Below, one piece after another: positions 9,060-38,444 of a stretch of 39,845 nucleotides of DNA. A program made the translations under genes and the position numbers. Below the pieces are notes generated by a model, which searched no databases, had not been told where the DNA came from, and saw only the letters and a list, made by a program, of their open reading frames with translations. Within the stretch, counting starts at the first letter, position 1. Each line of letters opens with the position of its first letter. Source of the DNA: a virus (Duplodnaviria; Caudoviricetes); IMG/VR virus record IMGVR_UViG_3300033076_001191, positions 1 to 39,845 of that record. One strand, given 5' to 3'.

Positions 9060-9099
9060 TAGCACGGCCGCGTTATCCCGCCATAACGCGGCCGAGTTT
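9060..9099. promoter_or_regulatory. Double-box element copy 1
   Basis: tagcacggccgcgtta-tcccgcca-taacgcggccgagttt; 9065-9094 is also a perfect 12-bp inverted repeat. Confidence 0.8.
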
Positions 9100-9122
9100 C
9101 ACACAATCTCTGGAGTCCTATC

Positions 9123-9605
9123 ATGGCTTACAAGTTCACTGATCCGAAGGCAGGTCTGCAAGACATCGCAGTCACCTCCACAGTCCAAAATCACCCCATC
9201 GGCACTCGTGCACACGCTTACGACAGCACCTACGGTGAAGGTGAGTTCATCTACCTCAAGGGCCTGGCTTCCACAGCCGTTGGCGAAACGGTCATCTACG
9301 ACACTTACGCCAACACCACGAAGCGTGCTGTGGCCGGTGATCGTGGCCCAGCCGCTGTCGCCATGTCCGCCAACGTGGCCAACCAGTACGGTTGGTACCA
9401 GATTGCTGGCTCCGCTGTGGTCAAGGCCGGCACCGTTGCCGCGGCAGGCGCGTGTTACCTGACCGCTACCGCGGGCTCCCTTGACGATGCAGTCGTATCT
9501 GGCGACAAGATCGACGGCATGCGCTTCAAGACCGCTGATGGCACCCCGTCCGCAGGTTTTGCGGTCGCTCAGTTGGCCCGCCCGAGCCTGAACGGTAACG
9601 GCTAA
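9123..9605 (+). CDS. Probable capsid decoration/cement protein
   Basis: 160 aa, Ala/Gly/Thr-rich, YGWYQIAG motif, directly after MCP with GGAG RBS and capsid-like codon bias. Confidence 0.6.
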   Translation: MAYKFTDPKAGLQDIAVTSTVQNHPIGTRAHAYDSTYGEGEFIYLKGLASTAVGETVIYDTYANTTKRAVAGDRGPAAVAMSANVANQYGWYQIAGSAVVKAGTVAAAGACYLTATAGSLDDAVVSGDKIDGMRFKTADGTPSAGFAVAQLARPSLNGNG

Positions 9606-9630
9606 ACGCTTCCGCCTCCCCAGGGCGTTT

Positions 9631-9660
9631 CCCAAGGGGCCTATGCTCCTTGGGTTTTTT
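9631..9660 (+). terminator. Rho-independent terminator after capsid genes
   Basis: cccaagg...ccttggg stem followed by TTTTTT. Confidence 0.8.
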
Positions 9661-9714
9661 GGGGAGTTTCCTACAAGACCATTTTTCAACCCTTAACTTC
9701 CTGGGGAAGTCATC

Positions 9715-10344
9715 ATGAGCATCGCAGTTGCTGAAGCCCGCCCTCCTTTTGTGACCTTCGAGGTTCGCGCAGAAGAAGATCGCGACAAGACAATCGAGAC
9801 TGGGATCTACTCAGTCAAGAATGTCGACTTCGCTATCATCACCCCTCAGGGTTCCAAAGACCGCATCGAACGCAAAGTCGATGAGTGGTTCCCGCAGCTC
9901 GAACAACAGGTTCGCGAAGAGCGCTTTTCCTCCGTCTGGCTCGATGGCTTCAAGTCCCGTTATCGCATCTGGAAAGAGACGAACGAGATCCCAGAAAACG
10001 GCCATCCGATCGTCAACTGGCCTGCCGCCAGCCCCGCACAGGTCAAGACCCTGCTCGCAGGCGGTGTCCGCACGATCGAAGATCTGGCCGTGGCGAATGA
10101 AGAAGTCCTCGCTCGCTTGGGCATGGGCGCTCGTGCCCTGAAAAATCGCGCCGTCGAATGGATGGCAGCGGCTCAAAACGGGGGCGCCCAGGCTGAAGAA
10201 ATCGCAGCCCTGAAGCAGCAGAACGAAGACCTGTTGCTCCGCGTGCAGTCGATGACCGAACAGCTGGAAAAGCTTGCCCCGCTGCTCCAAGCTTCACAGG
10301 ATTCGGCTAAGACCGCAGCCGCAGGCACCCTGACCAAGCTCTGA
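9715..10344 (+). CDS. Hypothetical protein with helix-hairpin-helix-like segment and C-terminal coiled coil
   Basis: LLAGGVRTIEDLA resembles HhH motifs of the RNAP alpha-CTD/Rad51-N type; heptad C-terminus. Confidence 0.6.
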   Translation: MSIAVAEARPPFVTFEVRAEEDRDKTIETGIYSVKNVDFAIITPQGSKDRIERKVDEWFPQLEQQVREERFSSVWLDGFKSRYRIWKETNEIPENGHPIVNWPAASPAQVKTLLAGGVRTIEDLAVANEEVLARLGMGARALKNRAVEWMAAAQNGGAQAEEIAALKQQNEDLLLRVQSMTEQLEKLAPLLQASQDSAKTAAAGTLTKL

Positions 10345-10349
10345 TCATC

Positions 10350-11069
10350 ATGAACCTCCTCACCCTTGTCCAGACGTTCTGTGACCGTACAGGTCTCCCT
10401 CGGCCTTCTTACGCCATCTCTTCTACAGACTCCCAAGTCCTGCAGATTATTGCCCTGGTGAATGAAGTCTGCGAGGATATCTCTACGCGATGGGACTGGC
10501 AAACATTGGTGAAGGAGGTTCTCTTTACAACCATCGCTGGTGAGGATCAGGGCAATATCTACACCATCATGGAACTGGAACGGAGTTCCTTCAACAAGAT
10601 CTCCCAGCAGACCATTTTCAACCGGACGCTCCGCTTGCCACTTTTCGGGCCTATGACCGGCTCAAAATGGCAGGCCATCAAGGCTCTTCCCGCAACCGGC
10701 CCCTTTTACAAATACCGTATCCGCGGCGATCGCCTCCTCTTCAACCCCCCGGCAGCTGAAGGGCATGAGTGCGCTTTTGAGGCTCTGACAACACTCTGCG
10801 TACAAAGCGGCGCGGGCGATCTTCAGATTTCTTTCCAAGCCGACACTGATTCTTTCCGCCTCGACGATAAGCTGCTCTTAGCCGGTTTGCGCTGGAAGTG
10901 GAAGGCGGAAAAGGGACTGGATTACGCTGAAGAGTTCAACCGTTACGAAGCCCTCGGAGCGGATCTGGCTTCTCGTGATGCCACCAAGCCCACGCTCATG
11001 ATGGATGGGGGCGGTACGGACTTCCGTCCAGGGATCTTTGTCCCATCTGGGAATTGGAACGTATCATGA
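10350..11069 (+). CDS. Head-tail adaptor (tail tubular protein A-like)
   Basis: 239 aa, N-terminal MNLLTLVQ..C helix, C-terminal WKWKAEKGLDYAEE; position before nozzle. Confidence 0.7.
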   Translation: MNLLTLVQTFCDRTGLPRPSYAISSTDSQVLQIIALVNEVCEDISTRWDWQTLVKEVLFTTIAGEDQGNIYTIMELERSSFNKISQQTIFNRTLRLPLFGPMTGSKWQAIKALPATGPFYKYRIRGDRLLFNPPAAEGHECAFEALTTLCVQSGAGDLQISFQADTDSFRLDDKLLLAGLRWKWKAEKGLDYAEEFNRYEALGADLASRDATKPTLMMDGGGTDFRPGIFVPSGNWNVS

Positions 11070-13059: not shown

Positions 13060-13060
13060 A

Positions 13061-14065: not shown

Positions 14066-15411
14066 GCCAAGCAATGTCCCTCCCTTTCGACCTGACTGGG
14101 GCTCAGGAACAGCTCGACCAAAAACGCCAATTGGCAGAGATGCTGATGGGCCGGGCAAACACGCCCGCGCAGGGGCAAATGGTCAGCGGCCATTACGTCG
14201 GCCCCGGACTGCTCGGCGCCGTCTCTCCGCTTATCAACGCCTTCCTGGCTAAAAAGGTCCAGAATGACGTCAGGACAGGCGGGGAAGAACTGCGTGGAAA
14301 GTACAATTCCATGCTGGCTGATGGCCTGGAAAAGTACTTCAACACCCGAGAAGGTACTCCTGCTGTCCCCTTCACCGGACCTATGCCTGCTGATCCCAGC
14401 AATCCGGAAATGGGGCAGATTTCTGGGAACTTGACGGAAGCTGTCGCACCTGACCCCAGGAAAGCCGCTATTCAAGCTCTGACCTCTGGCGTAGCTCCGC
14501 TGCAGCAGCTCGGTCAAATGGATCTGCAAAACATCGGGAAAAATTCTCTGACCCCGATCGAGCTTCTCAAGCTCGCTGGTGAGGGCAAGTTTACTCCGGA
14601 GTCGGCAGTTGCCGCCGCCACAACCCTCAACCCCCGTCAGTTGAAGGGCGCCCCGAAGGTGGAGGACAAGTGGACCGATCCTTACGAAATGAACGTCGGT
14701 AGCCGTCCTTTGCTGGTACGACGCAACCTGAAAAACAACGAGGTTGTCGCTATCAGCGGAGGCCAGACCATCAACATCGACACGCAAGGAAACAAGGCTG
14801 CCATCGAAAACTCAGTGAAGCTCTTGGGGCCTCTGCGTGAACAGATGCAGACAAGCCGTGGTATGCTGGAAACAGGTAGCCGAATTATGCAGCTGTCGAA
14901 GGATCCGCAAGTTCTGCAGGGGTTCGGTGCGGGTGTAGGCGTCGGGATATCCTCGCTTGCTGCGAAGCTCGGTTTCACTGGACCCGATGCCGCCGCAAAG
15001 ACGCAAGCCCTGATGAAGGACATGGCTACGAATGCTCTGGAAGCCGGGCAGAAGATGAAGGGTTCCTTCTCTGATGCCGACATCCTGTTCCTGAAAGAAG
15101 CTTCCGCTGGCAACATCAACCTCACGCCTGAGGCTATTCAGCATGCGGCTGGTCTGGCGATGATGGCAGGGCATAATACCCTGATGGATTCGATGAACCA
15201 GTTTGAAGAGGTCCGGAAGACTCCTGGGGCGGAGGCTATTGCCAATCAGTACCCACGTCCGCGGATCGGGAAGTATTCCCTGCCGAAGGACCTCTTTGAA
15301 GTTGATTCTGGCAACTACGCAACATTCCACAGCCCGCTGCAGCGGCCGTCCGCTCCCACACCCGGAGCGCCGATAAAAGCGGGCCAGCGTATCAAGTTCG
15401 AGGATATGTGA
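14062..15411 (+). CDS. DNA ejection/internal virion protein
   Basis: 449 aa, helical Ala/Gln-rich, QGQMVSGHYV N-terminal motif, position in the ejection cluster. Confidence 0.65.
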   Translation: MSQAMSLPFDLTGAQEQLDQKRQLAEMLMGRANTPAQGQMVSGHYVGPGLLGAVSPLINAFLAKKVQNDVRTGGEELRGKYNSMLADGLEKYFNTREGTPAVPFTGPMPADPSNPEMGQISGNLTEAVAPDPRKAAIQALTSGVAPLQQLGQMDLQNIGKNSLTPIELLKLAGEGKFTPESAVAAATTLNPRQLKGAPKVEDKWTDPYEMNVGSRPLLVRRNLKNNEVVAISGGQTINIDTQGNKAAIENSVKLLGPLREQMQTSRGMLETGSRIMQLSKDPQVLQGFGAGVGVGISSLAAKLGFTGPDAAAKTQALMKDMATNALEAGQKMKGSFSDADILFLKEASAGNINLTPEAIQHAAGLAMMAGHNTLMDSMNQFEEVRKTPGAEAIANQYPRPRIGKYSLPKDLFEVDSGNYATFHSPLQRPSAPTPGAPIKAGQRIKFEDM

Positions 15412-17522
15412 TGCCTGACAATCGCATGGAAGTTGAGATGCCTGACGGGAGTGTTATCGACGCTCCTGTCGGCACACCGAAAGCGGCTATCCAAGCTCGC
15501 TGGGAGTTGTCTCGTCTGCAGACGGCACGGGAACAGGCGGCGACGAAGGCTACGGCAGACCGAGCTGCTAAGGCCCCCGGAAAGACCTGGCTTTTCGACG
15601 CTACGAGTCCAGAACTGGATGCGATTGATAATGAAATCAGCAAACGTAAGGACATCGTCGCTAAGGCGAAAGCTGACACCGGCGGGTTTTTCGATAAAGC
15701 AAAGTACTATGCCGAGCAAGGTGCTTCGGCAGTTGCCCGCGGGCTTTTGCAGCTGCCCGCTATGGCAGCTTCTGCCGGCATGGCCACCGATCCTCAGAGG
15801 TACTCGAACCTGTCTTCTGGCCAGCCTTTGGCTGATGTTGGCAAGCTGGGGCGTCAACCACAAACAGCCGGCGAACGCTATGCCGCGCGGGCTATCGAAG
15901 GTGCTACTGGAGCCGTAGCTGGCCCGATGTCTGCTGGCACCGCTCCTATCCGAGCTGGACTGACGGGGGCGGCCAGCTCTGTGGGCAGCGAGGCCGCGGC
16001 AGACGTACTGGGGGATAACCCAGTGACACGTATTCTGGGCGGGGTGCTGGGCGGTGGCATGGCTTCCCTGGCAACTGCTCCGAAAACCACACGAGCTGAT
16101 CTTGTCCGTGAGGCTACGCAAGGCTCCACGGAACAGGAATTGCGTGATGCTCAGGCCTTGATGCGGGAGTCGAGGACCGCGGGTGTTCCGTTGAATCTTT
16201 CCCAAGCTATGCCAAAGGGAAGCAATATTGACGAAATGGTAGCGGCCCTTGCACAAAACCGTGCGGGCAAGATGACGGCGGAGACACTGCATAATCAACC
16301 CGGGGTTACGAGCACAGGCGTAGGGCTGGAAATCTCCCAACTGCCGGGGAAAGTGCTGACACCTCAAGAAGCTGCTAATAACGTCCAAGAGGCCACTACG
16401 AAGGTTATCAAGGACGTCAAGGCAGCCCGTACAAGTCTTACCAGTCCGCTGTATAATGCAGGTGGCGACCTAGGTGCGTCTGCTCCGAAGGAATTTGGCA
16501 ATACGATTGATCGTTTTGTGAACTCAGCTGGGGTCAGCCCGAAAGTCGCGCAGCAAGCCTTGGCGCTGAAGGAAGAACTGCTGGCAAGTTCCGCGAATGG
16601 CCAGCCTCGTACGCAGGCAACTGATATCAAAGCGGCAATTGACAGTTTCCGTGGCGGGATCAAGAATACCCTCAATCCACTGGATCCGAAGGAACAAGGG
16701 CAGATGAAGTTCTTGGTGGACCGGTTGTATCAACAGCTTGGCACAAAGTCGATTCCAGTCGCGGCCGGCAATGCCATCTACAGTCAAGTCTCGGAAAATG
16801 TCGTGGACCCTCTCAAGAAGAGTGTGGTTGGACGACTGGCCGGTACGGCTGGCGCACAGGCTGACAAGGAGGCTGTCGTAAGCCGACTGAACAGTGTGTT
16901 CGATAACGGAACTTTGCCCGGAGCTAAGTCGAGCGATATCCTGACCCTGGAAAAGTCCCTGCGCAATTCTGGGCAAGCTGAGGTGTTCCAGGATGCTGCA
17001 AAGACATGGCTGACAAACAAACTGGCTACCGCTACGAAAACACAAGGCGGCCGCTTGGCGGAGAACACCGCCGGGAATCTGGAAGCCGCCTTCGTGAAGG
17101 ATCCGAAGGCCCAGCAAGGCTTGCGGGACACCCTCGTGGCACTTGCCAGGAGCCAGGGACTGCCTGACGCTTCCCTGCTAAATGGGATGCAGAACATGAT
17201 GAAGTATGTGTCGGCGGCAGCCAGACGTCCCGGGCCAGTGGCAGGTACGAGTCCGCAGCAACTGGAAGAAGCCAGCCGCAGTCGTATCTTCGGCGGCATC
17301 GGAAACTTCAGCATGATGCAGCCTGTCCGCCAGCCCTTCAAGGCTATTGACGATGCCCTGAATCATGACGCGTATTCTTTCATGGACAAGCTGCTCAATA
17401 CTCCCGAAGGTGTGGATGTGCTTATCAAAATGGGCAAGGAACCCACGATCTCAAAGACAACGGCGCAGTCTCTGGCAACGGTTGTTGGCACCGCCGCTGG
17501 GGCTGAAGCGGGCCAGAAGTAA
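15411..17522 (+). CDS. Large DNA ejection/internal virion protein
   Basis: About 703 aa, Ala/Gly-rich with GxxxG stretches; third gene of the cluster. Confidence 0.65.
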   Translation: MPDNRMEVEMPDGSVIDAPVGTPKAAIQARWELSRLQTAREQAATKATADRAAKAPGKTWLFDATSPELDAIDNEISKRKDIVAKAKADTGGFFDKAKYYAEQGASAVARGLLQLPAMAASAGMATDPQRYSNLSSGQPLADVGKLGRQPQTAGERYAARAIEGATGAVAGPMSAGTAPIRAGLTGAASSVGSEAAADVLGDNPVTRILGGVLGGGMASLATAPKTTRADLVREATQGSTEQELRDAQALMRESRTAGVPLNLSQAMPKGSNIDEMVAALAQNRAGKMTAETLHNQPGVTSTGVGLEISQLPGKVLTPQEAANNVQEATTKVIKDVKAARTSLTSPLYNAGGDLGASAPKEFGNTIDRFVNSAGVSPKVAQQALALKEELLASSANGQPRTQATDIKAAIDSFRGGIKNTLNPLDPKEQGQMKFLVDRLYQQLGTKSIPVAAGNAIYSQVSENVVDPLKKSVVGRLAGTAGAQADKEAVVSRLNSVFDNGTLPGAKSSDILTLEKSLRNSGQAEVFQDAAKTWLTNKLATATKTQGGRLAENTAGNLEAAFVKDPKAQQGLRDTLVALARSQGLPDASLLNGMQNMMKYVSAAARRPGPVAGTSPQQLEEASRSRIFGGIGNFSMMQPVRQPFKAIDDALNHDAYSFMDKLLNTPEGVDVLIKMGKEPTISKTTAQSLATVVGTAAGAEAGQK

Positions 17523-17559
17523 TCCGGACGCATTAACACGGAATAACACGAACGAGGTA
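17520..17559. promoter_or_regulatory. Double-box element copy 2
   Basis: taatccggacgcatta-acacggaa-taacacgaacgaggta fills the gap from the stop codon to the RBS of the tail fibre gene. Confidence 0.8.
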
Positions 17560-17563
17560 TATC

Positions 17564-18721: not shown

Positions 18722-19948
18722 CTACGCCGTCACATTTCCATTTTGCGCGCTAGGCAGGGGTTTACCTTTGACCAGGAAATGATCCCCTCCTCCCTGCTGC
18801 ATAATGATATACCCGGCGCGGACACATCCAGCCAGCGCGTCCTCAAATTCCCGCATGGAGGGGAAGCAGGTGTGGACATAGCGATAAGCCTCCGCAAAGG
18901 GTACCCGCTCGCGCGCGTGGACATAATTGACCAAGCGTTCGATGTGGAGGGATATGTCACTTCGCCCGATCTTGGAAAAGACGAATTGCATATCTGGTTC
19001 GAGGTCTGTAAGCATGGCATACGCGATCTCCAAGTGGTCTCTTTGGATCACCAGATTATCGGATTCGGAGGCAGCAAGTACCATAGCTAGTTTGTGCATA
19101 TGGGTTTGCTTACGCGCGATGTAACCTCCGAATCTATCCGGGTCCAGATTGGCCGCTCGCTGGCTATAGTGATCCTGATACCACATTTTCCCCCAGTCTT
19201 TAGCCTCCTTCGTCAGGACATAGGGACCGGCGAGTTGGCGACTGATATGGGTTAGATCCTCGACAAGCTTCCTTTCCGTATCGAGCATGTCCTTAGGGAC
19301 ATCGTCGTCAGGGTAGGCTACGTGCTTGGCTTTCTGATCCGCGTAGACGAAAACAGTCCGGGAAGTGAAGCCGCCACCGATCATGTATTCAGGGAAATTC
19401 CCTGCGATCCAAGCCGGAGTGGTGCAGGCGATCAGGTTGATCCAGGGGTTTTGCACGGAATCGGAACCGGAGTGCTTTGTCTTCTTGTCGAAACTGCCCT
19501 GCTTTCCATCCCAGAGAGATACCAAGAGATCGACCATTTCCTTATCTTGCGGATTGAGGAGATTGCCGAATTCGGAGGCTTCCAGGGTCATTGCAGACAT
19601 CGGCCAGTATGCGCCATCGTATTCGAAGGACTCCAAGGAATCCGCGAACGCAGAGACGAGAGCGGGCCACGTCACGACGTCCGGACCGAACTTGATATCA
19701 GGGACTTGTCGAAGCAGGTTAATCGCCACGCCGGCGGTTGTTGATTTACTGACGATTCCAGGCGGCGCAACGAAGCAAATGTACATATTGCAGTACCACT
19801 TGAAATACGCCATATCTATCCATACCTTTCTGCGTAGCGCGCCCGCTATTGCTGATACCCCCGCCCAGAAATACATCCGTTGAGGGGCTTCCCCGAAGGA
19901 GGCGTAAGACATGAAAGCCTTGAGCCAGTCGTCATAGTGGCGGGTCAT
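18722..19948 (-). CDS. DUF3987-like P-loop NTPase (putative replicative helicase)
   Basis: EAP..FW..VSAIAGALRRKVW, NMY..FVAPPGIVSKST (variant Walker A), SEFGNLL, GGGFTSR; TAATG coupling to polA. Confidence 0.65.
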   Translation of the reverse strand: MTRHYDDWLKAFMSYASFGEAPQRMYFWAGVSAIAGALRRKVWIDMAYFKWYCNMYICFVAPPGIVSKSTTAGVAINLLRQVPDIKFGPDVVTWPALVSAFADSLESFEYDGAYWPMSAMTLEASEFGNLLNPQDKEMVDLLVSLWDGKQGSFDKKTKHSGSDSVQNPWINLIACTTPAWIAGNFPEYMIGGGFTSRTVFVYADQKAKHVAYPDDDVPKDMLDTERKLVEDLTHISRQLAGPYVLTKEAKDWGKMWYQDHYSQRAANLDPDRFGGYIARKQTHMHKLAMVLAASESDNLVIQRDHLEIAYAMLTDLEPDMQFVFSKIGRSDISLHIERLVNYVHARERVPFAEAYRYVHTCFPSMREFEDALAGCVRAGYIIMQQGGGDHFLVKGKPLPSAQNGNVTA

Positions 19949-22317
19949 TACTCGCAATCTCCCCAGCTGCGTGTTGACGTTTTGATGCCGATTGGGATGA
20001 TCAGCGGATCGGAATAAGGCAAAGCGATTTCAGCCGCTTGCACGATCCGGGCCGCCGTCTGCTCGCCACCAATTGTTGGGAATTGACCCGCCAGGGAATC
20101 GTGTACTTGCAGGAGAATTTCCACTTCGGGCATTGTTCTGTCGATTTCGACGTAGGCCCGGTTGATGAGGCAGGCAACGGTCGATTGTGGGATCCACGCA
20201 GCCGCTTGGTTGAAAATCGTCCCTTCGATTCGGTCGAAGAAGTAGCAGCGATAGCCGAAAACGTTTTCCACCATCCGGCGCTTAGTGACCTGATCCTTGA
20301 GATCGTCCTGCCAGCGCTTGATCCGAGGGAATTTACCAAAATACCACTTTTGTGTTTTCTCGGCTTCAGATACAGACAAACCAAGCCGCTCGGCAAGCCC
20401 CTTAGCTGTACCAAGGTAATTGGTTCCGTGGCAGAAGGCCTTGAAGAGTTGGCGGCGAGGGTCCTTTTTCGACAAGCTCGGGTCATGGTAGAATTCCTTG
20501 GCAACTTCCGTGTATGGGTCCAGCCCCTCTCGGAGCATGGCCTTCATTTCCGGTTCATCAGCCTCCCAAACAACAATTCGTAGGTCAGCTGAGCTGAGGT
20601 CAATGTCGAAAAAGGTACATCCGGAATCGGGGATAAAGAGACTACGAACATTAGGCAGTTCGAGTTCTTCACTCCCTCCACCCTTAGGTATATTTTGCAG
20701 GTTGAGTCCGGTTCCGAACGCATTGGTTGAAGAGCTAAAACGGTATGTTTCCGTCCCAGCGATGTTGAAACTGCAGCGCATTCTTCCATCAATGTCGAGA
20801 GGAGCATTGACAAATGTGCTGAGGAACACTCCAAGCGAGCGGAGCTCCTGAATTTTCCTGACGACGGGTTTGAGCAGAGGCTCACGATCAGCGATCTTAC
20901 CGAGGGCCTCATCATCACAGGTGACGGTTCTCGTCTTACGGGACGTAATGGGTCGTTGGGCAAACTGCTCATAGAAAAGCTCCTTCATTTGCTTGGGAGA
21001 CTTGATGTTGACGGGATAGCCCAGCATTTCATTAAGCCAGGTTTCCCGTTGAGCGATTTCGTTAAACAGGGTCATGGCAAATTCCGCGCGCTTGGCATGG
21101 TCTATGCGAATACCCCTGTTCATTGTGCGGAGCACTGGCCAGAATAGCTTTTGCTGGAAGTCGTGAACCTCCCGCAGTCCCATCAAATCTACGTTACGTT
21201 GTTCGACTGTGTCGACTTCATAGGTGATGACAGCGTCTTTGCAGTTGTAGACCCAGAGCTGGTCTTCTCCGGTTTTTTCATCCCACTCTTTCCCTTCGTC
21301 CTTCCAGAACTCGTGGTGCTCACAGTACATGGAAGAGAGGAAGTCGAGGCCCTTTTGCATGTTTGAGAAGCAGACGTGCTGGGATAGCATTGTGTCCCGA
21401 ACCAAGCGTGGGATGTAGTGCAAATGACGGTAGAAATACTGAGCATCATAAAGGAAATTCTGGCCGACGACTTCGGCATTGGGATGGGTGAGGAGGCGCT
21501 GGGTGAGCTGGTAGATGACGAGTTCTTCATCCTCGGACCAGTAGCCGTCCTGACGCTCGACGCACATCAGTGGGATACAGATGGCGTGCAGATGGGTCCA
21601 TGCGATACCAATACAGGCAATATGCCCGGCGCGTGTTTCGATATCGACAGAGAGCTTTGTTTTGGAAACCTCGACTTTGGCTAGGAGCTGGATGAGGTAG
21701 TATTCAGCCTGCTCGAAGGTCGGCCGCGTTATGAATTGGTAATCCGGCCGTATTATCCCCGGAAAGCCTGCCTGAGTTTTCGCCCTGCGGAAGTCATGCA
21801 CGACGATCTGCCTCCAGGACCATTGCCGCATGATAGCGGAGGGATGGTAGGCTGGGACAACCTTTGGTTTGTAGTCCAGGGAGGTTTGAAGATCGCATTC
21901 GATAACGGAGCCCCGCCAGGACATCACGCCCCAGTTACCGGTCAAAGCCCAGGTGGAAAGGTTTCCCAGGGCAATGATGACATTTGGCCTGACCATTTCG
22001 ATTTCACGGGTCAAGGCTTCGATACCATCCCAAACAGGCGGCATGACATACTTGTCACGAACGAGGCCGTGTTGCGGGGTGATGTCTGCTTTGCGCAAGG
22101 CTACAAAAGCCCCAATGTCATTGCCCGGTGGACGGACGCGGCAGACATTTGTCAGGAAGCATTCGTTGCGGTTGATCCCGGCTTCGTGGAGCATCTTGGA
22201 AAGCTCCTGACCGGAGTATCCGACGAAGGGGATTCCTTCGTGGACCTCGCGCTCACCAGGAGCTTCCCCGACAATCATGATTTTGGCCGGGGCGGGGCCG
22301 GTTGGTCGTACTTGCAT
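19948..22317 (-). CDS. polA: Family A DNA polymerase with N-terminal family-4 UDG-like domain and 3'-5' exonuclease
   Basis: UDG: VGEAPG, PFVG, TNV, YHPS. Exo I/II/III: VDIET, QNFLYD, YNCKD. Pol: TYRFSSS..NLQNIP, motif A DLSSADLR, motif B RQLFKAFCHGTNY, motif C QVHDS. Confidence 0.95.
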   Translation of the reverse strand: MQVRPTGPAPAKIMIVGEAPGEREVHEGIPFVGYSGQELSKMLHEAGINRNECFLTNVCRVRPPGNDIGAFVALRKADITPQHGLVRDKYVMPPVWDGIEALTREIEMVRPNVIIALGNLSTWALTGNWGVMSWRGSVIECDLQTSLDYKPKVVPAYHPSAIMRQWSWRQIVVHDFRRAKTQAGFPGIIRPDYQFITRPTFEQAEYYLIQLLAKVEVSKTKLSVDIETRAGHIACIGIAWTHLHAICIPLMCVERQDGYWSEDEELVIYQLTQRLLTHPNAEVVGQNFLYDAQYFYRHLHYIPRLVRDTMLSQHVCFSNMQKGLDFLSSMYCEHHEFWKDEGKEWDEKTGEDQLWVYNCKDAVITYEVDTVEQRNVDLMGLREVHDFQQKLFWPVLRTMNRGIRIDHAKRAEFAMTLFNEIAQRETWLNEMLGYPVNIKSPKQMKELFYEQFAQRPITSRKTRTVTCDDEALGKIADREPLLKPVVRKIQELRSLGVFLSTFVNAPLDIDGRMRCSFNIAGTETYRFSSSTNAFGTGLNLQNIPKGGGSEELELPNVRSLFIPDSGCTFFDIDLSSADLRIVVWEADEPEMKAMLREGLDPYTEVAKEFYHDPSLSKKDPRRQLFKAFCHGTNYLGTAKGLAERLGLSVSEAEKTQKWYFGKFPRIKRWQDDLKDQVTKRRMVENVFGYRCYFFDRIEGTIFNQAAAWIPQSTVACLINRAYVEIDRTMPEVEILLQVHDSLAGQFPTIGGEQTAARIVQAAEIALPYSDPLIIPIGIKTSTRSWGDCE
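21716..21755. promoter_or_regulatory. Double-box element copy 3 (inside polA)
   Basis: aaggtcggccgcgtta-tgaattgg-taatccggccgtatta. Confidence 0.75.
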
Positions 22318-22436
22318 TGTTTTACTCTTTCGTCTTTAGCCCATTGGGTGAAGAATTCGGCGGCCATCCAGCGGGATGTTTGCAGTGCAACCCACCGCCG
22401 CCACCGGAAGTAAAGATAAACGTGCTCGTTGTGCAT
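22275..22436 (-). CDS. Small hypothetical protein (53 aa), not in the ORF track
   Basis: TAATG coupling with the MTase stop; MHNEHVYLYFRWRRWVALQ...PRPKS; overlaps the polA start by 43 nt. Confidence 0.5.
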   Translation of the reverse strand: MHNEHVYLYFRWRRWVALQTSRWMAAEFFTQWAKDERVKQCKYDQPAPPRPKS

Positions 22437-23848
22437 TACATCAGAGCGGGCAATTCCAGTGCCTTCAATCCCTGGATTCGGCGCAGTCCCATTCCATAAT
22501 AGTCCGGGTTGATCTCACAGCCGACCGCGTAACATTGATGAGAGTGGGCGGCTTCGAAAATGGTTCCGGAACCAGCAAAGCCGTCGAACACGCGGTCACC
22601 GGGTTTAACACTGCGCTGCAGGAGATTGTGGAAAACGGCAACCGGTTTCTGGGCTCCATGGGACATGTTATCATCTGCAGTAGCTGATAGCACGTCGGGA
22701 TAGATATGAGTGACAGGCTTCTTTCCCTTGATCGCATAGAGAATGATCTCGTACTGACGACGGGGTCCTTGATCAGGGAGCGGAACACGACCGGAGTTGA
22801 TCTTGTGGCAGATGATAGGCGTGCGGAAAACATACCAGCCGGCTTTCTGCATCATCGCTTTGAGTTCGTGGAAATTGTCGAAGTCGCAAAAGACATAGGC
22901 ATGGGCTTGGGGTTTGCAAACTTGATAGGACAGAGCGGTCCATTCGGTCATGAGCTTGCGCCAGGATTCAAGAGAGTCATCGTAGTGATGTTCGATACCG
23001 GAGAGCTTTCCGGCGCCGTCGCCGAAACTGTCGGCGTCCATGCCGTAAGGCGGGTCGGTGAGGATGACGTCGAACAGTTCGTCTGGAGACTGGCGTTTGG
23101 TCACTTCCCACATGTAATCGATGCAGCTCTTGTTCAAGAGAGTATGGCAGTCGGCGTTGAAGGTGGCGCCAACGGTCTTCGCGAGTTCGATATTCGCAGC
23201 CCGCTGTTCTTCCTTCTTGAGGATTTTGAAGGCTTCATCGACGGACTTGGCTTTTGCGATGGCAGGATTGGAGAGGTGTTGTGCGACGATGACTTCCTTG
23301 CGGACGGTGTCCTGGTAGGCGCCATCGGAGCGGCCGAAGAGTTCGGTGGCGGTGTCAGCGATGGTGTGGGGCTTGGCCTTGGCGGCAGCGGCTTGCTGCT
23401 CCTCTGGCGGAAGTGCCGCGATTTCCTTGGCCAGGGCCACCCCCTTTTGCCGAGCGCGGAGTTTGTGCAGGCGGGCATGGGCATCGGCATTTTCCTGCCA
23501 CGTCAGGTCGCGGCGCTTGAGGTTCTCATCGAGTTCGGCTTCTTCTGCGGACAGTTCGTCGAGTTCACCGATGTCACTGTAAGGCACCATGCCGCCCCGG
23601 AAGATCTTGAGATTGTGCAGGAACTCCCCGTCGAGATCGAAGATATCTGTGATAGCCTTGAGGCGGGATTCGCCAGCGACAAGGACCATACGCAGGGTGC
23701 CATCGATGATTTCTTGGCGCAACACCGGTGCGTGCAGAAGGCCATTTTTCTCGATGGATTCCCGAAGTTCACAGATATGCACCGGGTCAAACTCCTGCCG
23801 CTGGCGGTTCGGTTTGATGACGATATCGGATAGCTTGATGGTTGGCAT
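22436..23848 (-). CDS. ParB/Srx-domain plus beta-class N6A/N4C DNA methyltransferase fusion
   Basis: N-terminal RQRQEF..SIEKNGLLHAP..LVAGESRLKA..ELDENLKRRDL (ParB); HTH-like TIADTATELFGRS; DPPY precedes DGFAGSGT (beta order). CAGGA RBS favours start 23848. Confidence 0.9.
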   Translation of the reverse strand: MPTIKLSDIVIKPNRQRQEFDPVHICELRESIEKNGLLHAPVLRQEIIDGTLRMVLVAGESRLKAITDIFDLDGEFLHNLKIFRGGMVPYSDIGELDELSAEEAELDENLKRRDLTWQENADAHARLHKLRARQKGVALAKEIAALPPEEQQAAAAKAKPHTIADTATELFGRSDGAYQDTVRKEVIVAQHLSNPAIAKAKSVDEAFKILKKEEQRAANIELAKTVGATFNADCHTLLNKSCIDYMWEVTKRQSPDELFDVILTDPPYGMDADSFGDGAGKLSGIEHHYDDSLESWRKLMTEWTALSYQVCKPQAHAYVFCDFDNFHELKAMMQKAGWYVFRTPIICHKINSGRVPLPDQGPRRQYEIILYAIKGKKPVTHIYPDVLSATADDNMSHGAQKPVAVFHNLLQRSVKPGDRVFDGFAGSGTIFEAAHSHQCYAVGCEINPDYYGMGLRRIQGLKALELPALM

Positions 23849-26546: not shown

Positions 26547-27564
26547 TATGCACGCCGTGCCCCCAGCTTGCTTCCCACTCCTCCACTGTGAGTTGCTTCC
26601 GTGCCAGCGGATCCCACACTCGCTGTTCAAAGCGGACTGGCAGCCAGTCTTCCGGGCTCGGGGACTTGCAGATGTCAACGAGGCTGCAGCCGCCGTACTC
26701 GGCACATGCGCCGTCCAGGGCGTAGTCCCAGTAGCCTTCCTTCCACATCTGGATGGCCCGGGTGATGTCACGCTCAGACTGGAACTTCCAGCGGGCAATC
26801 TCGTGCTGTGCGCGGTTGGTGATGACTTCCTGGGTGTCGTACTTGGTCTTGAGAATGGAGACACCACGGATGATGGTGCCAGCGACCGGGATGCCGGATT
26901 CCTTCGCTGCCCAGCAATAGCCGGTGAATTGGCCACGCATTTCCCACTGACGGCCCCACGAGGGGCCGAGGCTGGAAGTTGTCTTCTCGTCCACGATGTA
27001 GATGCCACCAGCGAACTCTGCGATCATGTCGGCGCGCCCGGTGTAGAGGATCGGGTCGCCGGTGACTGGGTGGTTGATGCCGAGCGGGAGAGCGAAGGAG
27101 AACTCGATGCCACGCCGACCATCGACGAAGGTGACAGGGATCTTGCTGTCAGTGTCGAGCGGGTACCGGGAAAAATAGAACTCCAGGGCACCGGCTGTGC
27201 GTTCGAGAGACTTGGCGGAGTCTGCTGGACACTCGAAGTCCCCATACGCGATCATGAGAGCGCGCAGGCCTTCGGCTTCGGCGACTTCCTTGTCGCCTTT
27301 GGCACCGGGTGTCCAGGCGAACTCGCCTTCGAGCTGCTTGGAGTGCCCGGAATCGTCCTTGCCGTAGGCAGGGTACAGGCCTTCGAAATAGACCTTGCGA
27401 GCAACTTCGATGCCCTTGGCGAAGGCTCCGCCCGCGACGAGGTGGACGGATTCGGTTTTCGGCTTCCAGTGCTCGACATAGGTGCGGAACATCTTTTGCG
27501 GGCAGGAACGGAATGCTGCCAACATGGTGGAGTCGAAAGTGTGGGGAAACATTGGGCGGATCAT
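26539..27564 (-). CDS. Cas4/RecB-like PD-(D/E)xK exonuclease
   Basis: GRADMI..IVDEKTT..QFTGY catalytic motifs; N-terminal CP plus C-terminal C..C..C as in Fe-S-binding Cas4/AddB nucleases. Confidence 0.88.
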   Translation of the reverse strand: MIRPMFPHTFDSTMLAAFRSCPQKMFRTYVEHWKPKTESVHLVAGGAFAKGIEVARKVYFEGLYPAYGKDDSGHSKQLEGEFAWTPGAKGDKEVAEAEGLRALMIAYGDFECPADSAKSLERTAGALEFYFSRYPLDTDSKIPVTFVDGRRGIEFSFALPLGINHPVTGDPILYTGRADMIAEFAGGIYIVDEKTTSSLGPSWGRQWEMRGQFTGYCWAAKESGIPVAGTIIRGVSILKTKYDTQEVITNRAQHEIARWKFQSERDITRAIQMWKEGYWDYALDGACAEYGGCSLVDICKSPSPEDWLPVRFEQRVWDPLARKQLTVEEWEASWGHGVHNA

Positions 27565-27896
27565 TGCGGCTTCCTTCTAGTTGCGATTGCGTGGACGTTG
27601 TAGGGAACGGGCTGGCCCAGGGCAATGAAGAGGTTTTCCAGCTCCCGGGCCAGAACCTGCACTCGGTCCGAGGCGCTGCCGTCGGCCTTGCTGGGACCGA
27701 GACGGATGTCGTTGACCTTGAGTGCTCCGATGATGTTGCCGACGGTGACTTCAATGCCGAGGTCGGAGGAGGCCTGCTTGGCGATGTGCTCACGGGAGCG
27801 GCCGGCGAAGGAGTCCTTGTTCCGCCCGCACCAGAGGTTGAGGCGGAAGACATCCTTGGCGGAGAGCATGTTGCGGGTGCGCTTGGGCTGGGTCAC
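27561..27896 (-). CDS. Hypothetical protein (possible HTH)
   Basis: Coupled at both ends; SREHIAKQASSDLGIEVTVGNI is HTH-like. Confidence 0.6.
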   Translation of the reverse strand: MTQPKRTRNMLSAKDVFRLNLWCGRNKDSFAGRSREHIAKQASSDLGIEVTVGNIIGALKVNDIRLGPSKADGSASDRVQVLARELENLFIALGQPVPYNVHAIATRRKPQ

Positions 27897-28613: not shown

Positions 28614-28618
28614 GATGA

Positions 28619-29332: not shown

Positions 29333-29373
29333 AAACACGGACGTATTATCGCCGGATAACGCGTCCGCGTCAA
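29333..29373 (-). promoter_or_regulatory. sigma70 promoter overlapped by double-box element copy 4
   Basis: TTGACG-N17-GATAAT on the - strand; + strand aaacacggacgtatta-tcgccgga-taacgcgtccgcgtca. Confidence 0.85.
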
Positions 29374-29390
29374 TACCCTAACCCCCAGTT

Positions 29391-31373: not shown

Positions 31374-31378
31374 GGCGG

Positions 31379-33423: not shown

Positions 33424-33444
33424 TTGGAAGTTCCTTGTGTGTAG

Positions 33445-33801
33445 TTAGGCCCAGTGTCTCTTGTGCTTGTTCATCGCATCGACCAGTTCGCCGTACCCTT
33501 CGAGCTTGAGCAACTTGTCCGACAGAGCGCGGCAGGCACCGCCGTAGACTTCGGGATCGTGCATATTTCCAGGGCGGTTTGCTTGTTCAACCATAACAGG
33601 CACTCGCGCCAGTGCCTGCTTCACCCGCTCTTGCCGCTGGAAGTGCTCTTCGATGAGGCGGCAGATAAACGCCTGCCAAGCTCCGTGCGGGACTTTGCCT
33701 TCGAGTTCGGAGAAGAGCAGCAACTCCACCTTCCCCGCGAGGGACTCCGGCAGGTGCAGGTGTTTGGAAACGGGGCGATCAGTTCGTGCGGGACGTGGCA
33801 T
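33445..33801 (-). CDS. Possible ribbon-helix-helix DNA-binding protein
   Basis: MPRP..KHLHLPESLA..FICRLIEEHF: a strand followed by two helices. Confidence 0.55.
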   Translation of the reverse strand: MPRPARTDRPVSKHLHLPESLAGKVELLLFSELEGKVPHGAWQAFICRLIEEHFQRQERVKQALARVPVMVEQANRPGNMHDPEVYGGACRALSDKLLKLEGYGELVDAMNKHKRHWA

Positions 33802-34027: not shown

Positions 34028-34029
34028 GG

Positions 34030-34470: not shown

Positions 34471-34486
34471 ACTATTTCCAGGTTTA

Positions 34487-34762: not shown

Positions 34763-34803
34763 GCTGAGACTCCAGGTTTGCGTAATGCGAGCACCATTGC
34801 TCG

Positions 34804-34844
34804 ATATACGTCCGTATTATCCCACGATAACGCGTCCGCGTCAA
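34804..34844 (-). promoter_or_regulatory. sigma70 promoter overlapped by double-box element copy 5
   Basis: TTGACG-N17-GATAAT on the - strand; + strand atatacgtccgtatta-tcccacga-taacgcgtccgcgtca. Confidence 0.85.
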
Positions 34845-34869
34845 CCCAGATCTACACCCCTAACCCCCA

Positions 34870-34909
34870 AGAGATAACGCCCGCATGGAGTATGGCTTCC
34901 ATGCGGGCG
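34870..34909 (-). terminator. Rho-independent terminator
   Basis: 12-bp stem cgcccgcatgga/tccatgcgggcg followed on the - strand by TTATCTCTT. Confidence 0.7.
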
Positions 34910-35013
34910 GTCCCCGGGTTCTATTCCCCCGCGTCATCCGGCATCCCGTGCCAGCTCGGACCAGCTTCGCGGGGAGTCGCCGTCCCCGGTTGCTGGATTT
35001 CACTTGCGGTCGA

Positions 35014-35592: not shown

Positions 35593-35683
35593 TTTGGCAC
35601 TCCATGAAAAAGGCAGGCATTTAGAGGATCGCGGTGCTGAGGGTGCTTGCCGGTATGCCCTCATTTTGCGGCGCGATGGGTGG

Positions 35684-35711
35684 ATTTTAACTACCCGCGC
35701 GGGGCTGTCAA
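35684..35711 (-). promoter_or_regulatory. sigma70-like promoter
   Basis: TTGACA-N16-TAAAAT in the intergenic gap. Confidence 0.7.
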
Positions 35712-35731
35712 CAGGAAAAAGCGAGAACTTG

Positions 35732-36067
35732 TTAATTTTTCAGAATTTCCTCCAGGACACTGGCGTCCACACTAGGAGTAGCTACCATCATTTGCACTGA
35801 ATACCGAAACCATCGGAATTCCCAGGGTACTTTGCGGAAATGGATCTGCATTTGGGCCAGTCGCGCACTGGTGTCCGGGTGTACGCCAGGGAATTGCGAA
35901 AAGCTCTTCCCGAATGCCCGCAGGCGCTTCATCCGATTAACGCCTTGGCTCGCTGTCTGCACAGCCTCAACATCAACCCATTCCCCGGGAGTGTCCAGGC
36001 ACTTTTTGAGCAGCGTATGCCAAGCCACCGGGTAGTTATCGGGGCCGGTTGGTGTGTAAGTTCCCAT
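35732..36067 (-). CDS. Hypothetical early protein (111 aa)
   Basis: Starts 2 nt after the upstream stop; GAGG RBS. Confidence 0.7.
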   Translation of the reverse strand: MGTYTPTGPDNYPVAWHTLLKKCLDTPGEWVDVEAVQTASQGVNRMKRLRAFGKSFSQFPGVHPDTSARLAQMQIHFRKVPWEFRWFRYSVQMMVATPSVDASVLEEILKN

Positions 36068-36069
36068 GG

Positions 36070-36477
36070 TTAGTAATACCTCGTTGTCTTACCGTCCCCA
36101 GGCGTGCCCGCTTGCGAGACCTTCGCCATCCTCTCCCCGGCTTCCTGCAGGGCCAGTTCCTCGGACGACCTGACTTCCCCCGCCCCGGCTTCCCGGAGAA
36201 CTTCCGCGACTGTCTGCATCAGCCCCGACATCACCTTTTGCCGAATCACGACGACATGAGCCTTCTCTGGGTCAAAGCCAACGGAACAGTTCACAATCGC
36301 GTCCTTGAGCGCCTCATCCGCAGGTTCCTTCCCGGCCCGTGCCGCCTTCACCGCGTTATACAGGGCAAAGCGAAACTTCACGGCATCGCTCGCGGACTTA
36401 CACGGCACCGCGACCCCGTCTTCCTTGGCCATCGCACGCCGCCAGAGTTCTTGCATCATTGCCTTTTGCTTATCCAT
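36070..36477 (-). CDS. Hypothetical early protein (135 aa)
   Basis: AGGAG RBS; downstream of promoter 36556-36584. Confidence 0.75.
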   Translation of the reverse strand: MDKQKAMMQELWRRAMAKEDGVAVPCKSASDAVKFRFALYNAVKAARAGKEPADEALKDAIVNCSVGFDPEKAHVVVIRQKVMSGLMQTVAEVLREAGAGEVRSSEELALQEAGERMAKVSQAGTPGDGKTTRYY

Positions 36478-36555
36478 AATTGGGGCTCCTAAATTGGTCA
36501 GTAAGGCCGAACGGGTATCCCGGAAAAAGGCTTCCCCTAACTGGCCGGAATACGT

Positions 36556-36584
36556 AGTATCCCTAGCCCCTCTGCAGTTGTCAA
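36556..36584 (-). promoter_or_regulatory. sigma70-like promoter
   Basis: TTGACA-N17-GATACT. Confidence 0.7.
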
Positions 36585-36713
36585 TAGTATCCTTTCAATC
36601 CTTTGCGTGCGGAGTACCCCGGGGCGTGGTTGCACCGTCCCCCGCTATTTATTGCAATTGGCGGGAGTAGAAGGTCCGGTGCGGGGTGCTAACGGGTAGT
36701 GACCCCGTTTTAT

Positions 36714-36793
36714 AAAAAAAAAAATGTTACAACAGAATACAATGGGCACAATGGGTGCAATGGGTGCAACGCGTACAACGCGTACAACGATCA
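36714..36793. repeat. A11 tract followed by six degenerate 9-bp tandem repeats
   Basis: caatgggca caatgggtg caatgggtg caacgcgta caacgcgta caacgatca at 36740-36793. Confidence 0.85.
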
Positions 36794-37044
36794 CACGGGA
36801 ACGAGAGGGACCGGCCCCGGACCTTTTACTCCCGACAACTCCCACAAACACCGAGGGACGGTGCACGCAACCCAAGCGAGTACACCCCGGGCAAACAACC
36901 AAAACCCCGCCAATGCGTTTGCGAGGCCGGGCTGGTAGGGTAGGGTCACCCAGGACTAAAAACGCCGCCACGGGGCCGGGAGAGGGCATGGTGAGGGCGT
37001 TTGATGGGCACGGCGGATGAGGGGAAACGGTCCTGGGAGACCGG

Positions 37045-37084
37045 AAACCCGGCCGCATTATTGGCGGGTAATACGAACGCGCAA
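37045..37084. promoter_or_regulatory. Double-box element copy 6
   Basis: aaacccggccgcatta-ttggcggg-taatacgaacgcgcaa. Confidence 0.8.
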
Positions 37085-37126
37085 CGCGCCCCCGCACACC
37101 CATGCCCGTGCGCGAATAGCACAAGC

Positions 37127-37152
37127 AAAAACGCCCCGTCAATACGGGGCGT
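37127..37152 (-). terminator. Rho-independent terminator
   Basis: acgccccgt-caat-acggggcgt stem with T tract on the - strand. Confidence 0.75.
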
Positions 37153-37233
37153 GAAAGTTATGCGGGATCGGCTATCCCAAAACCTCGAATAACACGAACC
37201 ATTCGAGGGCGGAGAGGGTGACTTCCTCGGCGA

Positions 37234-37746
37234 TCATTCCGCGTCATCCAAGCCGGCGAGGAGGGCGGCCCCATCGATACCATCGGTTTTGGCCGATTCC
37301 GCCTTCAATTGTTCGATAATCGAGGCAATAGCGGGGAGTTTGCGGAGGGTGGCCTTCTCCGAGTCCGACTTCCCCTCCAAAAACTCCCGGATTTGCTCGG
37401 GGGTTTTGGTCGGATAGAGACGCGTGAGAGCGCGGAACAACAAACCGCCCGAACTGCCACCAGCCCCGCCCTCGCGTTGTTTATTCCATTGGCCCGACAA
37501 AAGCCGGTCGTATACCTCCCGCACCGCGTTGTATTTATCTTCCGTGGTTGCACTCCGTCCCGTATCCGGGTTTCGGCTGATGGCGGCCGCATCCACCAGT
37601 TTCTGTTTCAATCCGTGCATGAGGGCCGCGTTGCGAATTTCCTCGGTCAATTGGCTGGCGGAAATCGAGAGGGTTTGGCCATTGTCAAAAGCCATGCCCA
37701 AAACGGTTCCGGAAATCGTGGTCTCGATTGTGGGTGTACGTGCCAT
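37234..37746 (-). CDS. Hypothetical early protein, paralog B (170 aa)
   Basis: AAGGA RBS; homologous to 35014..35592. Confidence 0.85.
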   Translation of the reverse strand: MARTPTIETTISGTVLGMAFDNGQTLSISASQLTEEIRNAALMHGLKQKLVDAAAISRNPDTGRSATTEDKYNAVREVYDRLLSGQWNKQREGGAGGSSGGLLFRALTRLYPTKTPEQIREFLEGKSDSEKATLRKLPAIASIIEQLKAESAKTDGIDGAALLAGLDDAE

Positions 37747-37850
37747 GATAGATCCTTCCGGGGCTCGACGTCCCCATTAAAATGGTGTGACGACCACACC
37801 GGGAGGCCCGCACGCGACGGGCAACCCGCTATGTTCGAAGTCGAATTGTA

Positions 37851-38057
37851 TCAATAGATACTGTAATGGGCAACTGCCATACCATCTGCCCCGATCAATT
37901 CGAGCGTGCCGCACTCGGCGTCGTCAAAATCGCCGGCCTCATACCAATGTGACACGAGAGACAAAAAGGTTTCGCGTAATGCCTCGCCCGTTGCCTTAGT
38001 GGTGAGTGTTGTGTATGGCGCGCCGTCGAATGTGATTGCATATGTATATGTCGTCAT
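37851..38057 (-). CDS. First leftward early gene, small acidic protein (68 aa)
   Basis: GAGG RBS; directly after promoter 38090-38118. Confidence 0.7.
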   Translation of the reverse strand: MTTYTYAITFDGAPYTTLTTKATGEALRETFLSLVSHWYEAGDFDDAECGTLELIGADGMAVAHYSIY

Positions 38058-38089
38058 GGTCGGAACCTCTCGTTGATTGGTATGTCTCC

Positions 38090-38118
38090 AATGTAGGAGA
38101 GCTTCCGCACCATGTCAA
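38090..38118 (-). promoter_or_regulatory. sigma70-like leftward (early) promoter
   Basis: TTGACA-N17-TACATT. Confidence 0.7.
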
Positions 38119-38404
38119 CCATCGGAACCTGCCTGTTACATTTGTTACACTCCCCCTGCCATGTTGTTTTTTCGCAACGCAGGTTCCCATCCATAGGTAA
38201 GACACCCGGGGGTATGAGCAGGCAGGCGGGGGTGTGCGCGATGGCTGGTTTACGGCGAGTAGCCTCCCCACGCGCCACTGCCCAAAACCCCCTCTTTTTC
38301 CCTGACCGCTTCGACAACTGGCACGAAATGGGGGGGGGGCGTGGTGGATACCCAGTGAACATTACTGACGGGACTCCGCCCCGGAAAAAATCAAAGGTCG
38401 ATTG

Positions 38405-38444
38405 AAACACGGCCGGATTATCGGGTATTAACCCGGACGGATTT
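38405..38444. promoter_or_regulatory. Double-box element copy 7
   Basis: aaacacggccggatta-tcgggtat-taacccggacggattt, ending 26 bp upstream of the rightward -35. Confidence 0.8.

Follow-up and report, generated by a model that had tools for sequence, protein, structure and literature searches.

A genome-wide element of three interlocked dyads as a possible two-protein loading site for a ParB-methyltransferase fusion in podovirus-like phages

Introduction

The virus record IMGVR_UViG_3300033076_001191, taken here at its full length of 39,845 bp (hereafter the window), is the genome of a podovirus-like phage in which a 40-bp element occurs seven times between 9060 and 38444, and the question raised by this locus is what reads the copies and to what end. 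An earlier note, made from the window alone, had described each copy as a pair of quasi-palindromes and had proposed a protein-binding site of a global regulatory or genome-organising system. Comparison of the element and of the phage proteins over related records suggests that two proteins probably read it, with a ribbon-helix-helix (RHH)-like protein on the outer cores and a fusion of a ParB half, a helix-turn-helix (HTH) and a DNA methyltransferase on the centre. Overall, we assign a probability of about 0.48 to the reading that the element is a composite two-key loading station for this ParB-methyltransferase, which would slide as a clamp and methylate DNA in cis.

Results

The element and its copies

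The element consists of three overlapping 16-bp dyads placed in 12-bp steps, with the architecture W4-core8-RTTA-N8-TAAY-core8-W4, in which two GC-rich outer cores enclose a central RTTA-N8-TAAY. The 30-bp core given in the earlier note is matched exactly by 7 of 7 copies (core starts 9065, 17525, 21721, 29338, 34809, 37050 and 38410), and no further match could be found in the window with up to three mismatches; when two mismatches were tolerated the count was still seven, compared with a mean of 0.02 and a maximum of 1 in 100 dinucleotide shuffles. Direct inspection of the window also confirmed that the 8-bp spacer is different in each of the seven copies. The central RTTA-N8-TAAY carries little information by itself, and since solo central dyads stand at the chance level (23 versus 19.5 by chance), the central dyad alone should be unable to mark phage DNA. 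The copies and the gene that houses one of them are as follows.

Copy 1: 9060..9099, unstranded, 2 nt past the stop of the major capsid gene, with its central dyad at 9072-9087
Copy 2: 17520..17559, unstranded, starting with the stop codon of a 704-aa gene (15408-17522) in the structural module
Copy 3: 21716..21755, unstranded, within polA, about 562 nt from the polA start
Copy 4: 29333..29372, unstranded, 18 nt past the stop of the Dda-like helicase gene and over a sigma-70-type promoter on the minus strand (29373-29345)
Copy 5: 34804..34843, unstranded, over a sigma-70-type promoter on the minus strand (34844-34816), about 1.0 kb upstream of the same-strand RHH gene
Copy 6: 37045..37084, unstranded, in a probably non-coding region (36585-37230)
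Copy 7: 38405..38444, unstranded, between the divergent arms, about 90 nt ahead of a probable small terminase gene (start 38535)
polA: 19948..22317, minus strand, family A DNA polymerase gene housing copy 3, directly downstream of the ParB-methyltransferase gene

These positions bear out the earlier placement of copies over two promoters, at gene junctions (9060 and 17520) and inside polA; the copy at 38405 had been set upstream of the late promoter, and its place before the probable small-terminase start stands, but that promoter was not demonstrated, a TTGACA at 38471 being its only trace. The polA copy is extended by a further 24 bp through a degenerate extra box at 21740-21779. A similar triple-box element was seen in record G013, and contig L131 (5332-5395) was also listed for a degenerate third box.

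Conservation in related phages, on which the earlier proposal depended, was found family-wide: 70 of the 92 examined records carry 3-14 copies, with a constant architecture and genome-specific letters. The core types include CGNNCG, CCCNNGGG, TGTGTR, CACCCG and TAGTCC, and the inner tetramers include ATTA, AATA, ATAA, TTTA and AGTA.

Two proteins track different parts of the element

Two of the candidates named beforehand, the RHH-like protein and the ParB-methyltransferase, have DNA-reading residues that track these letters.

33445..33801, minus strand: RHH-like protein of 118 aa, with a conserved core at residues 1-58, a basic N-terminal arm, and S12, H14 and H16 exposed
22436..23848, minus strand: fusion of a ParB N-terminal half, an HTH and a beta-class N6A/N4C methyltransferase, the frame being open to 23869
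23312-23314: codon of Q186 of the 477-aa frame (Q179 from the Met at 23848), which tracks the central dyad

In a blind, tree-corrected scan of 2014 variable columns in 11 proteins from 34 genomes (a set that excludes the near-duplicates G001 and G005 and five RHH-less records), RHH residues 12 (rank 1), 16 (rank 6) and 14 (rank 21) gave the best account of the core, and the inner tetramer was best accounted for by ParB residues 186 (rank 1, r 0.70, the next being 0.47), 192 (rank 3) and 185 (rank 12). The RHH strand pattern had been spotted by eye before scanning, and the ParB signal arose from the scan. With the positions fixed in advance, the exposed RHH residues predicted the core at 0.39 (p<0.001) and ParB 185/186 the inner tetramer at 0.45 (p=0.010) in 23 held-out genomes, which exclude the near-duplicates G057, G066, G073 and G077 and 14 records with fewer than three sites or a missing protein; the cross terms, from RHH to the inner tetramer and from ParB to the core, were not significant in these genomes. 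Per base, the RHH protein accounts for positions 6-12 and the ParB protein for positions 13, 14 and 16.

The two signals could also be separated in individual comparisons. Genomes with the same HTH residues 185-192 and differing RHH strands have differing cores (G000/G007, G000/G082 and G006/G091), those with the same RHH strand and a differing residue 186 have differing centres, and the loss of Q/H186 accompanies an altered inner tetramer in three separate lineages (G012 with G013, G010, and MW202489). Among phylogenetically independent pairs, RHH S16 and the core type changed in the same direction in 5.9 and in the opposite direction in 0.1 (median p 0.03). The outer tetramers do not change along with residue 186, as in G013, where the outer ones are TAAT/TTAT and the inner one TATT, so that the HTH is more likely to lie across the central RTTA-N8-TAAY than on a single outer box. 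Other proposed binders fared worse, as neither the 35014 nor the 37234 protein supplied a top column at any known DNA-reading position, and that at 27561-27896 had fewer than three BLAST matches in the family.

Predicted folds of the two proteins

The model of the RHH-like protein (predicted local distance difference test, pLDDT, 92) has an N-terminal strand with alternating exposed residues and then two helices, the arrangement expected of an RHH protein, and residues 12/14/16 covary with the core more strongly than 11/13/15/17. Its top VIA matches were mostly RHH proteins (YiiF, Z 5.0; TacA1, 4.7; NikR, 4.5; TraM, 4.2), with a root-mean-square deviation of about 3 A over about 50 residues and Z values that are low. 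A Foldseek search with the model and a PDB sequence search with its profile returned nothing significant, and Pfam and PHROGs searches over the members assigned no family, Pfam RHH_6 being matched by only 1 of 35 members (E 0.005). The domain has 325 relatives, all unnamed. It is further distinguished by a longer conserved inter-helix loop (FSELEGKVPHG), and several of the arms contain an AT-hook-like GRP, with one weak Pfam AT_hook match (E 0.095).

The model of the ParB half of the fusion, which covers residues 1-232, resembles Noc, ParB and KorB in its fold (Foldseek E 5e-7 to 5e-5, with alignments of 200+ columns). As in those proteins, an N-terminal domain with GxxRxxA and ENxxR motifs is joined to a central HTH, and the residues G59, E60, R62, E108, N109 and R112 (G-E-x-R and E-N-x-x-R) are invariant in 146 sequences. 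The HTH helices at 163-171 and 176-189 were modelled with a mean pLDDT of 93, and a long helix at 203-229 runs into the methyltransferase. The model places residue 186 within the first turn of helix two of the HTH. A specificity residue at the start of the recognition helix has been described for ParB (R173) and Noc (Q158) (PMC7383237). Q186 might correspond to it by an alignment made by eye, which the profile search did not confirm; the sequence profile failed to span or align the HTH to ParB, owing to an insertion. The C-terminal half matches PF01555 (E 6e-27), the PDB sequences nearest to it come from beta-class enzymes such as CcrM, and the DPPY/F catalytic motif, present in 56 of 57 sequences, stands ahead of the FxGxG S-adenosylmethionine motif, as in the beta class. 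No ParA was found among 62 open reading frames (ORFs) searched with PHROGs and 27 searched with Pfam, so that the protein does not qualify as part of a ParABS system. When two ParB halves and two RHH chains were modelled together as a complex, the score was 0.31 against a mark of 0.32, and this prediction is not used as evidence.

Conservation across the family

The plus strand of the window encodes terminase, portal and capsid; primase, polA, the ParB-methyltransferase, a Sak4-like protein, an exonuclease and a Dda-like helicase are encoded on the minus strand. The window's nearest named relative is MW202489 (PolA 73%). The exact 30-bp core was found at 107 places in IMG/VR. Per-genome motif discovery in a first set of 51 records (48 retrieved records, the window and two GenBank phages, with G028 and G036 left out) gave 3-9 copies in 41, compared with 0-1 in 18 Markov controls. 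A second set of 41 more records, picked by their ParB-methyltransferase and including 16 available only as 13-18 kb loci, gave 3-14 copies in 29, one or two in 7 and none in 5, and 20 controls gave 0.

Each of the 40 motif-bearing first-set relatives has primase, polA and the ParB-methyltransferase, and the RHH gene occurs in 35 of these 40, being lacking only in five records that are 65-87% complete; it was found in 35/41 second-set records. More distant RHH homologues occur in G020, G021, G022 and Mel-JY34, with a weak one in G026. The ParB-methyltransferase is present and the window-type capsid gene absent in 23 records above 35 kb (e.g. G004, G015, G017, G029 and G055) as well as in Mel-JY34, and as most of these records keep the element, it travels with the replication module. 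Among GenBank phages only MW202489 clearly has both proteins, Mel-JY34 and one Vibrio phage having distant ParB-methyltransferases.

De novo searches extended the element to some divergent records. The sister phages G020 and G021 contain a 41-bp variant with a 9-bp spacer and a conserved ATTATATC-like inner part, and in both the ParB helix differs and the RHH protein is divergent, with a GRP arm.

Centres of the 9-bp-spacer variant, G020: 1258, 7519, 17217 and 37724
Centres of the 9-bp-spacer variant, G021: 855, 6465, 17448 and 38140

G022 has two or three possible sites. Both proteins are encoded with zero sites under the family model in G061, G063, G084, G090 and G080; in G061 about four weak TGAAC-type sites were recovered de novo, and nothing rose clearly over controls in the de novo search of Mel-JY34, G026, G063, G064, G080, G084 and G090.

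Placement of the copies

Several positions are widely shared. A site is found no more than 60 nt from the capsid stop in 27/30 genomes, after the stop of the 704-aa gene in 20/21, after the Dda stop in 20/45 and after the primase stop in 20/59, and within 300 nt ahead of the probable small terminase gene in 12/14. The polA copy has been retained beyond what the peptide needs in 27/49 genomes (p<=0.0015 each), through synonymous codons that suit the motif of the genome concerned, and the remaining 22/49 keep a similar peptide and no site. A primase-end copy occurs in 0/27 genomes with the polA copy versus 13/22 without it, which is suggestive of the two compensating for each other, mostly in one clade. 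In 36/37 near-complete genomes the largest gap between copies is under the random median.

In the window, the promoters covered by the copies at 29333 and 34804 are of the form TTGACG-17-GATAAT, on the minus strand, and in most genomes a copy is found 0.3-1.4 kb upstream of the RHH gene. Family-wide, TTGAC stands in the -35 register at only 16 of 758 arm ends (with a crude ORF caller), on which ground a phage-specific promoter or a pure promoter operator was rejected. Promoter-like sites with a perfect TTGACA and no overlapping element lie at 35711, 36584, 38118, 34498 and 24729 on the minus strand and at 38471 on the plus strand. Two further features of the window were observed. At 36631-36865 a 55-nt imperfect inverted repeat surrounds short tandem repeats and an A-run and could be an origin or a genome terminus, and the contig ends (2-199 and 39422-39619) have 198 nt in common at just 78% identity within the split gene for the large terminase, which points to a circular join that is imperfect or mixes strains.

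Discussion

A proposed two-key loading station

According to the covariation described above, one RHH dimer would bind each outer core through its beta-ribbon, with the basic arms on the AT-rich flanks, and a ParB HTH dimer would occupy the central dyad, as ParB does on 16-bp parS. Since the centre carries little information, it would fall to the RHH boxes to restrict loading to phage DNA through their specificity. The enzyme might then close into a cytidine triphosphate (CTP)-gated clamp that slides along the phage genome and methylates it in cis, and at the copies over promoters (29333 and 34804) the same complex could act as a repressor, the RHH operon included. Given the two-protein binding map, spreading methylation in cis is somewhat favoured over pure regulation because of the even tiling, the intragenic copies and the conserved catalytic and nucleotide motifs. 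It is a more tentative suggestion that the evenly spaced stations tile the genome, with the clamp sliding several kb, so that only the phage's own DNA would be methylated as an epigenetic self-mark; the accompanying idea of a fast-evolving two-protein code that separates the systems of relatives is part of that suggestion and shares its tentative standing.

Several observations weigh against the two-key loading station. All evidence for binding is correlational, i.e. covariation, and the permutation p-values assume exchangeable genomes and ignore shared ancestry, so that significance is overstated. Only four independent pairs were available for ParB 186 (three same, zero opposite, p 0.25), and those for RHH E12 gave p 0.125. 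The blind scan was weaker in the held-out genomes, where RHH 14 ranked 24 and RHH 12/16 ranked 263/264, and ParB 185/186 ranked 17/23, of 1791 columns. Counter-examples include G053, which has Q186 but AGTA, G015 and G019, which have Q186 but ATAA, and G065, without Q186 yet with mixed ATTA/AATA, and HTH residues 185-192 have a small term for the core too (0.21, p 0.009). Mel-JY34 carries both proteins in distant form, yet no element was found in it. The even spacing is partly inherited position, and the genomes are not independent in this respect. As to the mechanism, NTP-binding mutations had no effect in a phage ParB-like activator, according to PMC13229309, and CTP gating thus cannot be assumed. 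Six-base palindromes are avoided in the family genomes above 30 kb (median log2 observed/expected -0.44, GGATCC -2.1), and this persisting avoidance argues against blanket anti-restriction methylation; protection from restriction would be partial at best, and the mark may serve another self-recognition step. The most avoided palindromes were GGATCC, ATCGAT, GAGCTC and GCATGC, with CTAG avoided too, and word bias in the family genomes pointed to no identifiable methylation target.

Alternative explanations

The foremost rival keeps the two-protein site and gives it a transcriptional output, namely KorA/KorB-like repression of near and far promoters and a block to read-through where genes end, with methylation local or incidental. 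Two window copies indeed sit over near-consensus promoters, many copies lie at gene starts or ends, the RHH gene mostly has a copy upstream, and KorB, together with a partner that locks the clamp, silences promoters at distances of up to 1.5 kb (PMC11790492). We nevertheless regard this rival as unlikely, although the least so of the alternatives, given the rarity of the -35 register, the strong promoters at 35711, 36584, 38118 and 34498 that have no element, the persistence of copies in polA and the late module, and the conserved methyltransferase motifs. The global regulatory system proposed earlier is thus plausible as one of two outputs, but as the sole one it sits poorly with the few copies in promoter register and with a ParB partner whose methyltransferase looks intact.

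Next in order comes a double operator or roadblock for the RHH protein alone, stoperator-like, in which two RHH dimers would read the cores and the AT flanks and the link to ParB 186 would be a coincidence. The RHH covariation is the broader signal (positions 6-12), the AT-hook-like GRP in several arms could read AT tetramers, and residue 186 is backed by just three or four independent changes, with exceptions. Against this, no RHH term exists for the inner tetramer (0.004; the best column among residues 1-24 ranks 56), ParB 186/185 rank 1/2 of 2137 columns and are sited in the recognition helix, and the outer tetramers do not follow the inner change, as G013 exemplifies, all of which makes the RHH-only operator quite improbable.

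A nucleic-acid structure or recombination site (an RNA hairpin or terminator, a processing site, a cruciform or a lox/dif-like site) could be suspected from the dyad in each copy and from the apparent covariation of the arms when genomes are pooled. That covariation vanishes inside genomes: over 379 sites in 57 genomes the arm complementarity was 12.41/20 versus 12.72 after within-genome arm shuffling, in agreement with the earlier observation of non-covarying arms. The exception is the capsid-downstream class, in which pairing reached 6.65 vs 5.76 of 9 (23 genomes; 0 of 300 shuffles as high) and the 3' end is T-richer, often with a T-rich ending; the copy following the capsid gene may double as a weak terminator or an RNA-stabilising stem. 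A standard terminator was noted at 9631-9654. In the other four of the five positional classes pairing does not exceed that of shuffles, and in three of these it is lower; the hairpin/cruciform candidate was rejected for the element at large. Partner sites of the lox/dif type have matching spacers and are served by a tyrosine recombinase. Here, the seven window spacers all differ and no recombinase was among the PHROGs or Pfam matches. A structural or recombination role is accordingly very improbable, and a protein-binding element, as the earlier note had argued, is the most likely explanation.

That the element is bound by a transcription factor or nucleoid protein of the host is the least credible explanation of all, since the letters of the element vary from phage to phage together with phage residues, and since exact matches to the window's variant in GTDB are below expectation (65 in 596 Gb, in scattered phyla, versus about 139 at uniform composition), so that, for this variant, no shared motif emerged from 185,579 prokaryotic genomes. 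Three of the 65 matches are family phage contigs within genome bins, L435, L436 and L448, binned as Phycisphaeraceae, Aquaspirillum and Gammaproteobacteria; these labels conflict and may reflect mis-binning, and a protein scan of GTDB for the host gave no match. Non-phage matches form two small groups with similar dyads and no family genes nearby (L421/L442/L449 and L474/L483/L485), from Clostridiales and from one Planctomycetota bin with three copies.

Relation to known systems

The element works most like the RK2 KorA-KorB system without being a member of it. A ParB-type clamp with a 16-bp site and a small site-specific DNA-binding partner are common to both, as is the occurrence of some sites at promoters and others far from them (PMC11790492). 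The phage differs in that the partner candidate has an RHH fold and no separate 12-bp OA operator of the KorA kind, that the sites interlock in 12-bp steps with two partner boxes per centre and a 4-bp overlap each, that the clamp protein bears a DNA methyltransferase, and that the carrier is a podovirus-like phage. A TrbA variant of the RK2 system is reportedly treated in PMC13584720. With ParB-parS and Noc-NBS the system shares the N-terminal and HTH fold, the 16-bp dyad and, by the alignment made by eye, the place of the specificity residue at the start of the recognition helix (PMC7383237), whereas here no ParA was found, the 8-bp middle is unconstrained, the centre is of low information, the sites are evenly spread rather than origin-clustered, and a methyltransferase forms the C-terminus.

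The window protein belongs to the phage fusions of a ParB-CTPase fold with an N6_N4 methyltransferase (PF02195 and PF01555) surveyed in PMC12704722. For these an anti-defence or host-interaction role has been suggested, the accessible part of that survey giving no site, partner or mechanism, and in other fusions the ParB-CTPase fold binds ATP or GTP (PMC12704722). Compared with that survey, the present family adds the HTH, a candidate site and a candidate partner. Other DNA-modifying enzymes that are ParB-linked or connected with plasmid entry have also been described (PMC13229309, PMC7736820).

Mycobacteriophage cluster A stoperators are likewise numerous repressor sites spread genome-wide, in genes and at junctions, but each is asymmetric and is a target of an immunity repressor that binds as a monomer (PMC9283540), whereas the present sites are symmetric, 40 bp long and track two proteins. 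The sites being dyads, and no repressor family having been matched, the element does not classify as a stoperator. Arc/MetJ/CopG-type RHH proteins read DNA with a beta-ribbon and three exposed residues, two dimers binding a double operator. The present arrangement differs from theirs in its 24-bp spacing, with the site of a third, different protein in between, and in the lack of a Pfam or PHROGs family. In lambda OR, the HTH repressors CI and Cro bind operators clustered at divergent promoters. No CI/Cro match was obtained with PHROGs or Pfam, in line with the earlier remark that the phage has no recognisable CI repressor, and the sites are dispersed, so that the element is not of the lambda OR type; the analogy drawn earlier with OR1/OR2 is incomplete, as it leaves out the third dyad, the central RTTA-N8-TAAY, whose letters track another protein. 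No published description of the element or system was found in the literature covered, most subscription journals and supplements lying outside it. The present family contributes a site in which three dyads interlock, together with a named partner that has a residue-to-base signal of its own.

Implications

ParB-methyltransferase fusions are common in phages, and their target and mechanism are not given in the accessible part of the survey PMC12704722. In this family there are candidates for both the site and the partner, along with a natural residue-to-base series over dozens of genomes, and two small purified proteins with a 40-bp oligonucleotide would allow tests of binding, CTP-gated sliding and cis-restricted methylation. 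If repression alone is true, the element would be a phage counterpart of KorA-KorB made from different parts. If sliding methylation is true, the virus would distinguish its own DNA from that of its host by address rather than by timing, and the family would provide a set of orthogonal, site-loaded methylation tools.

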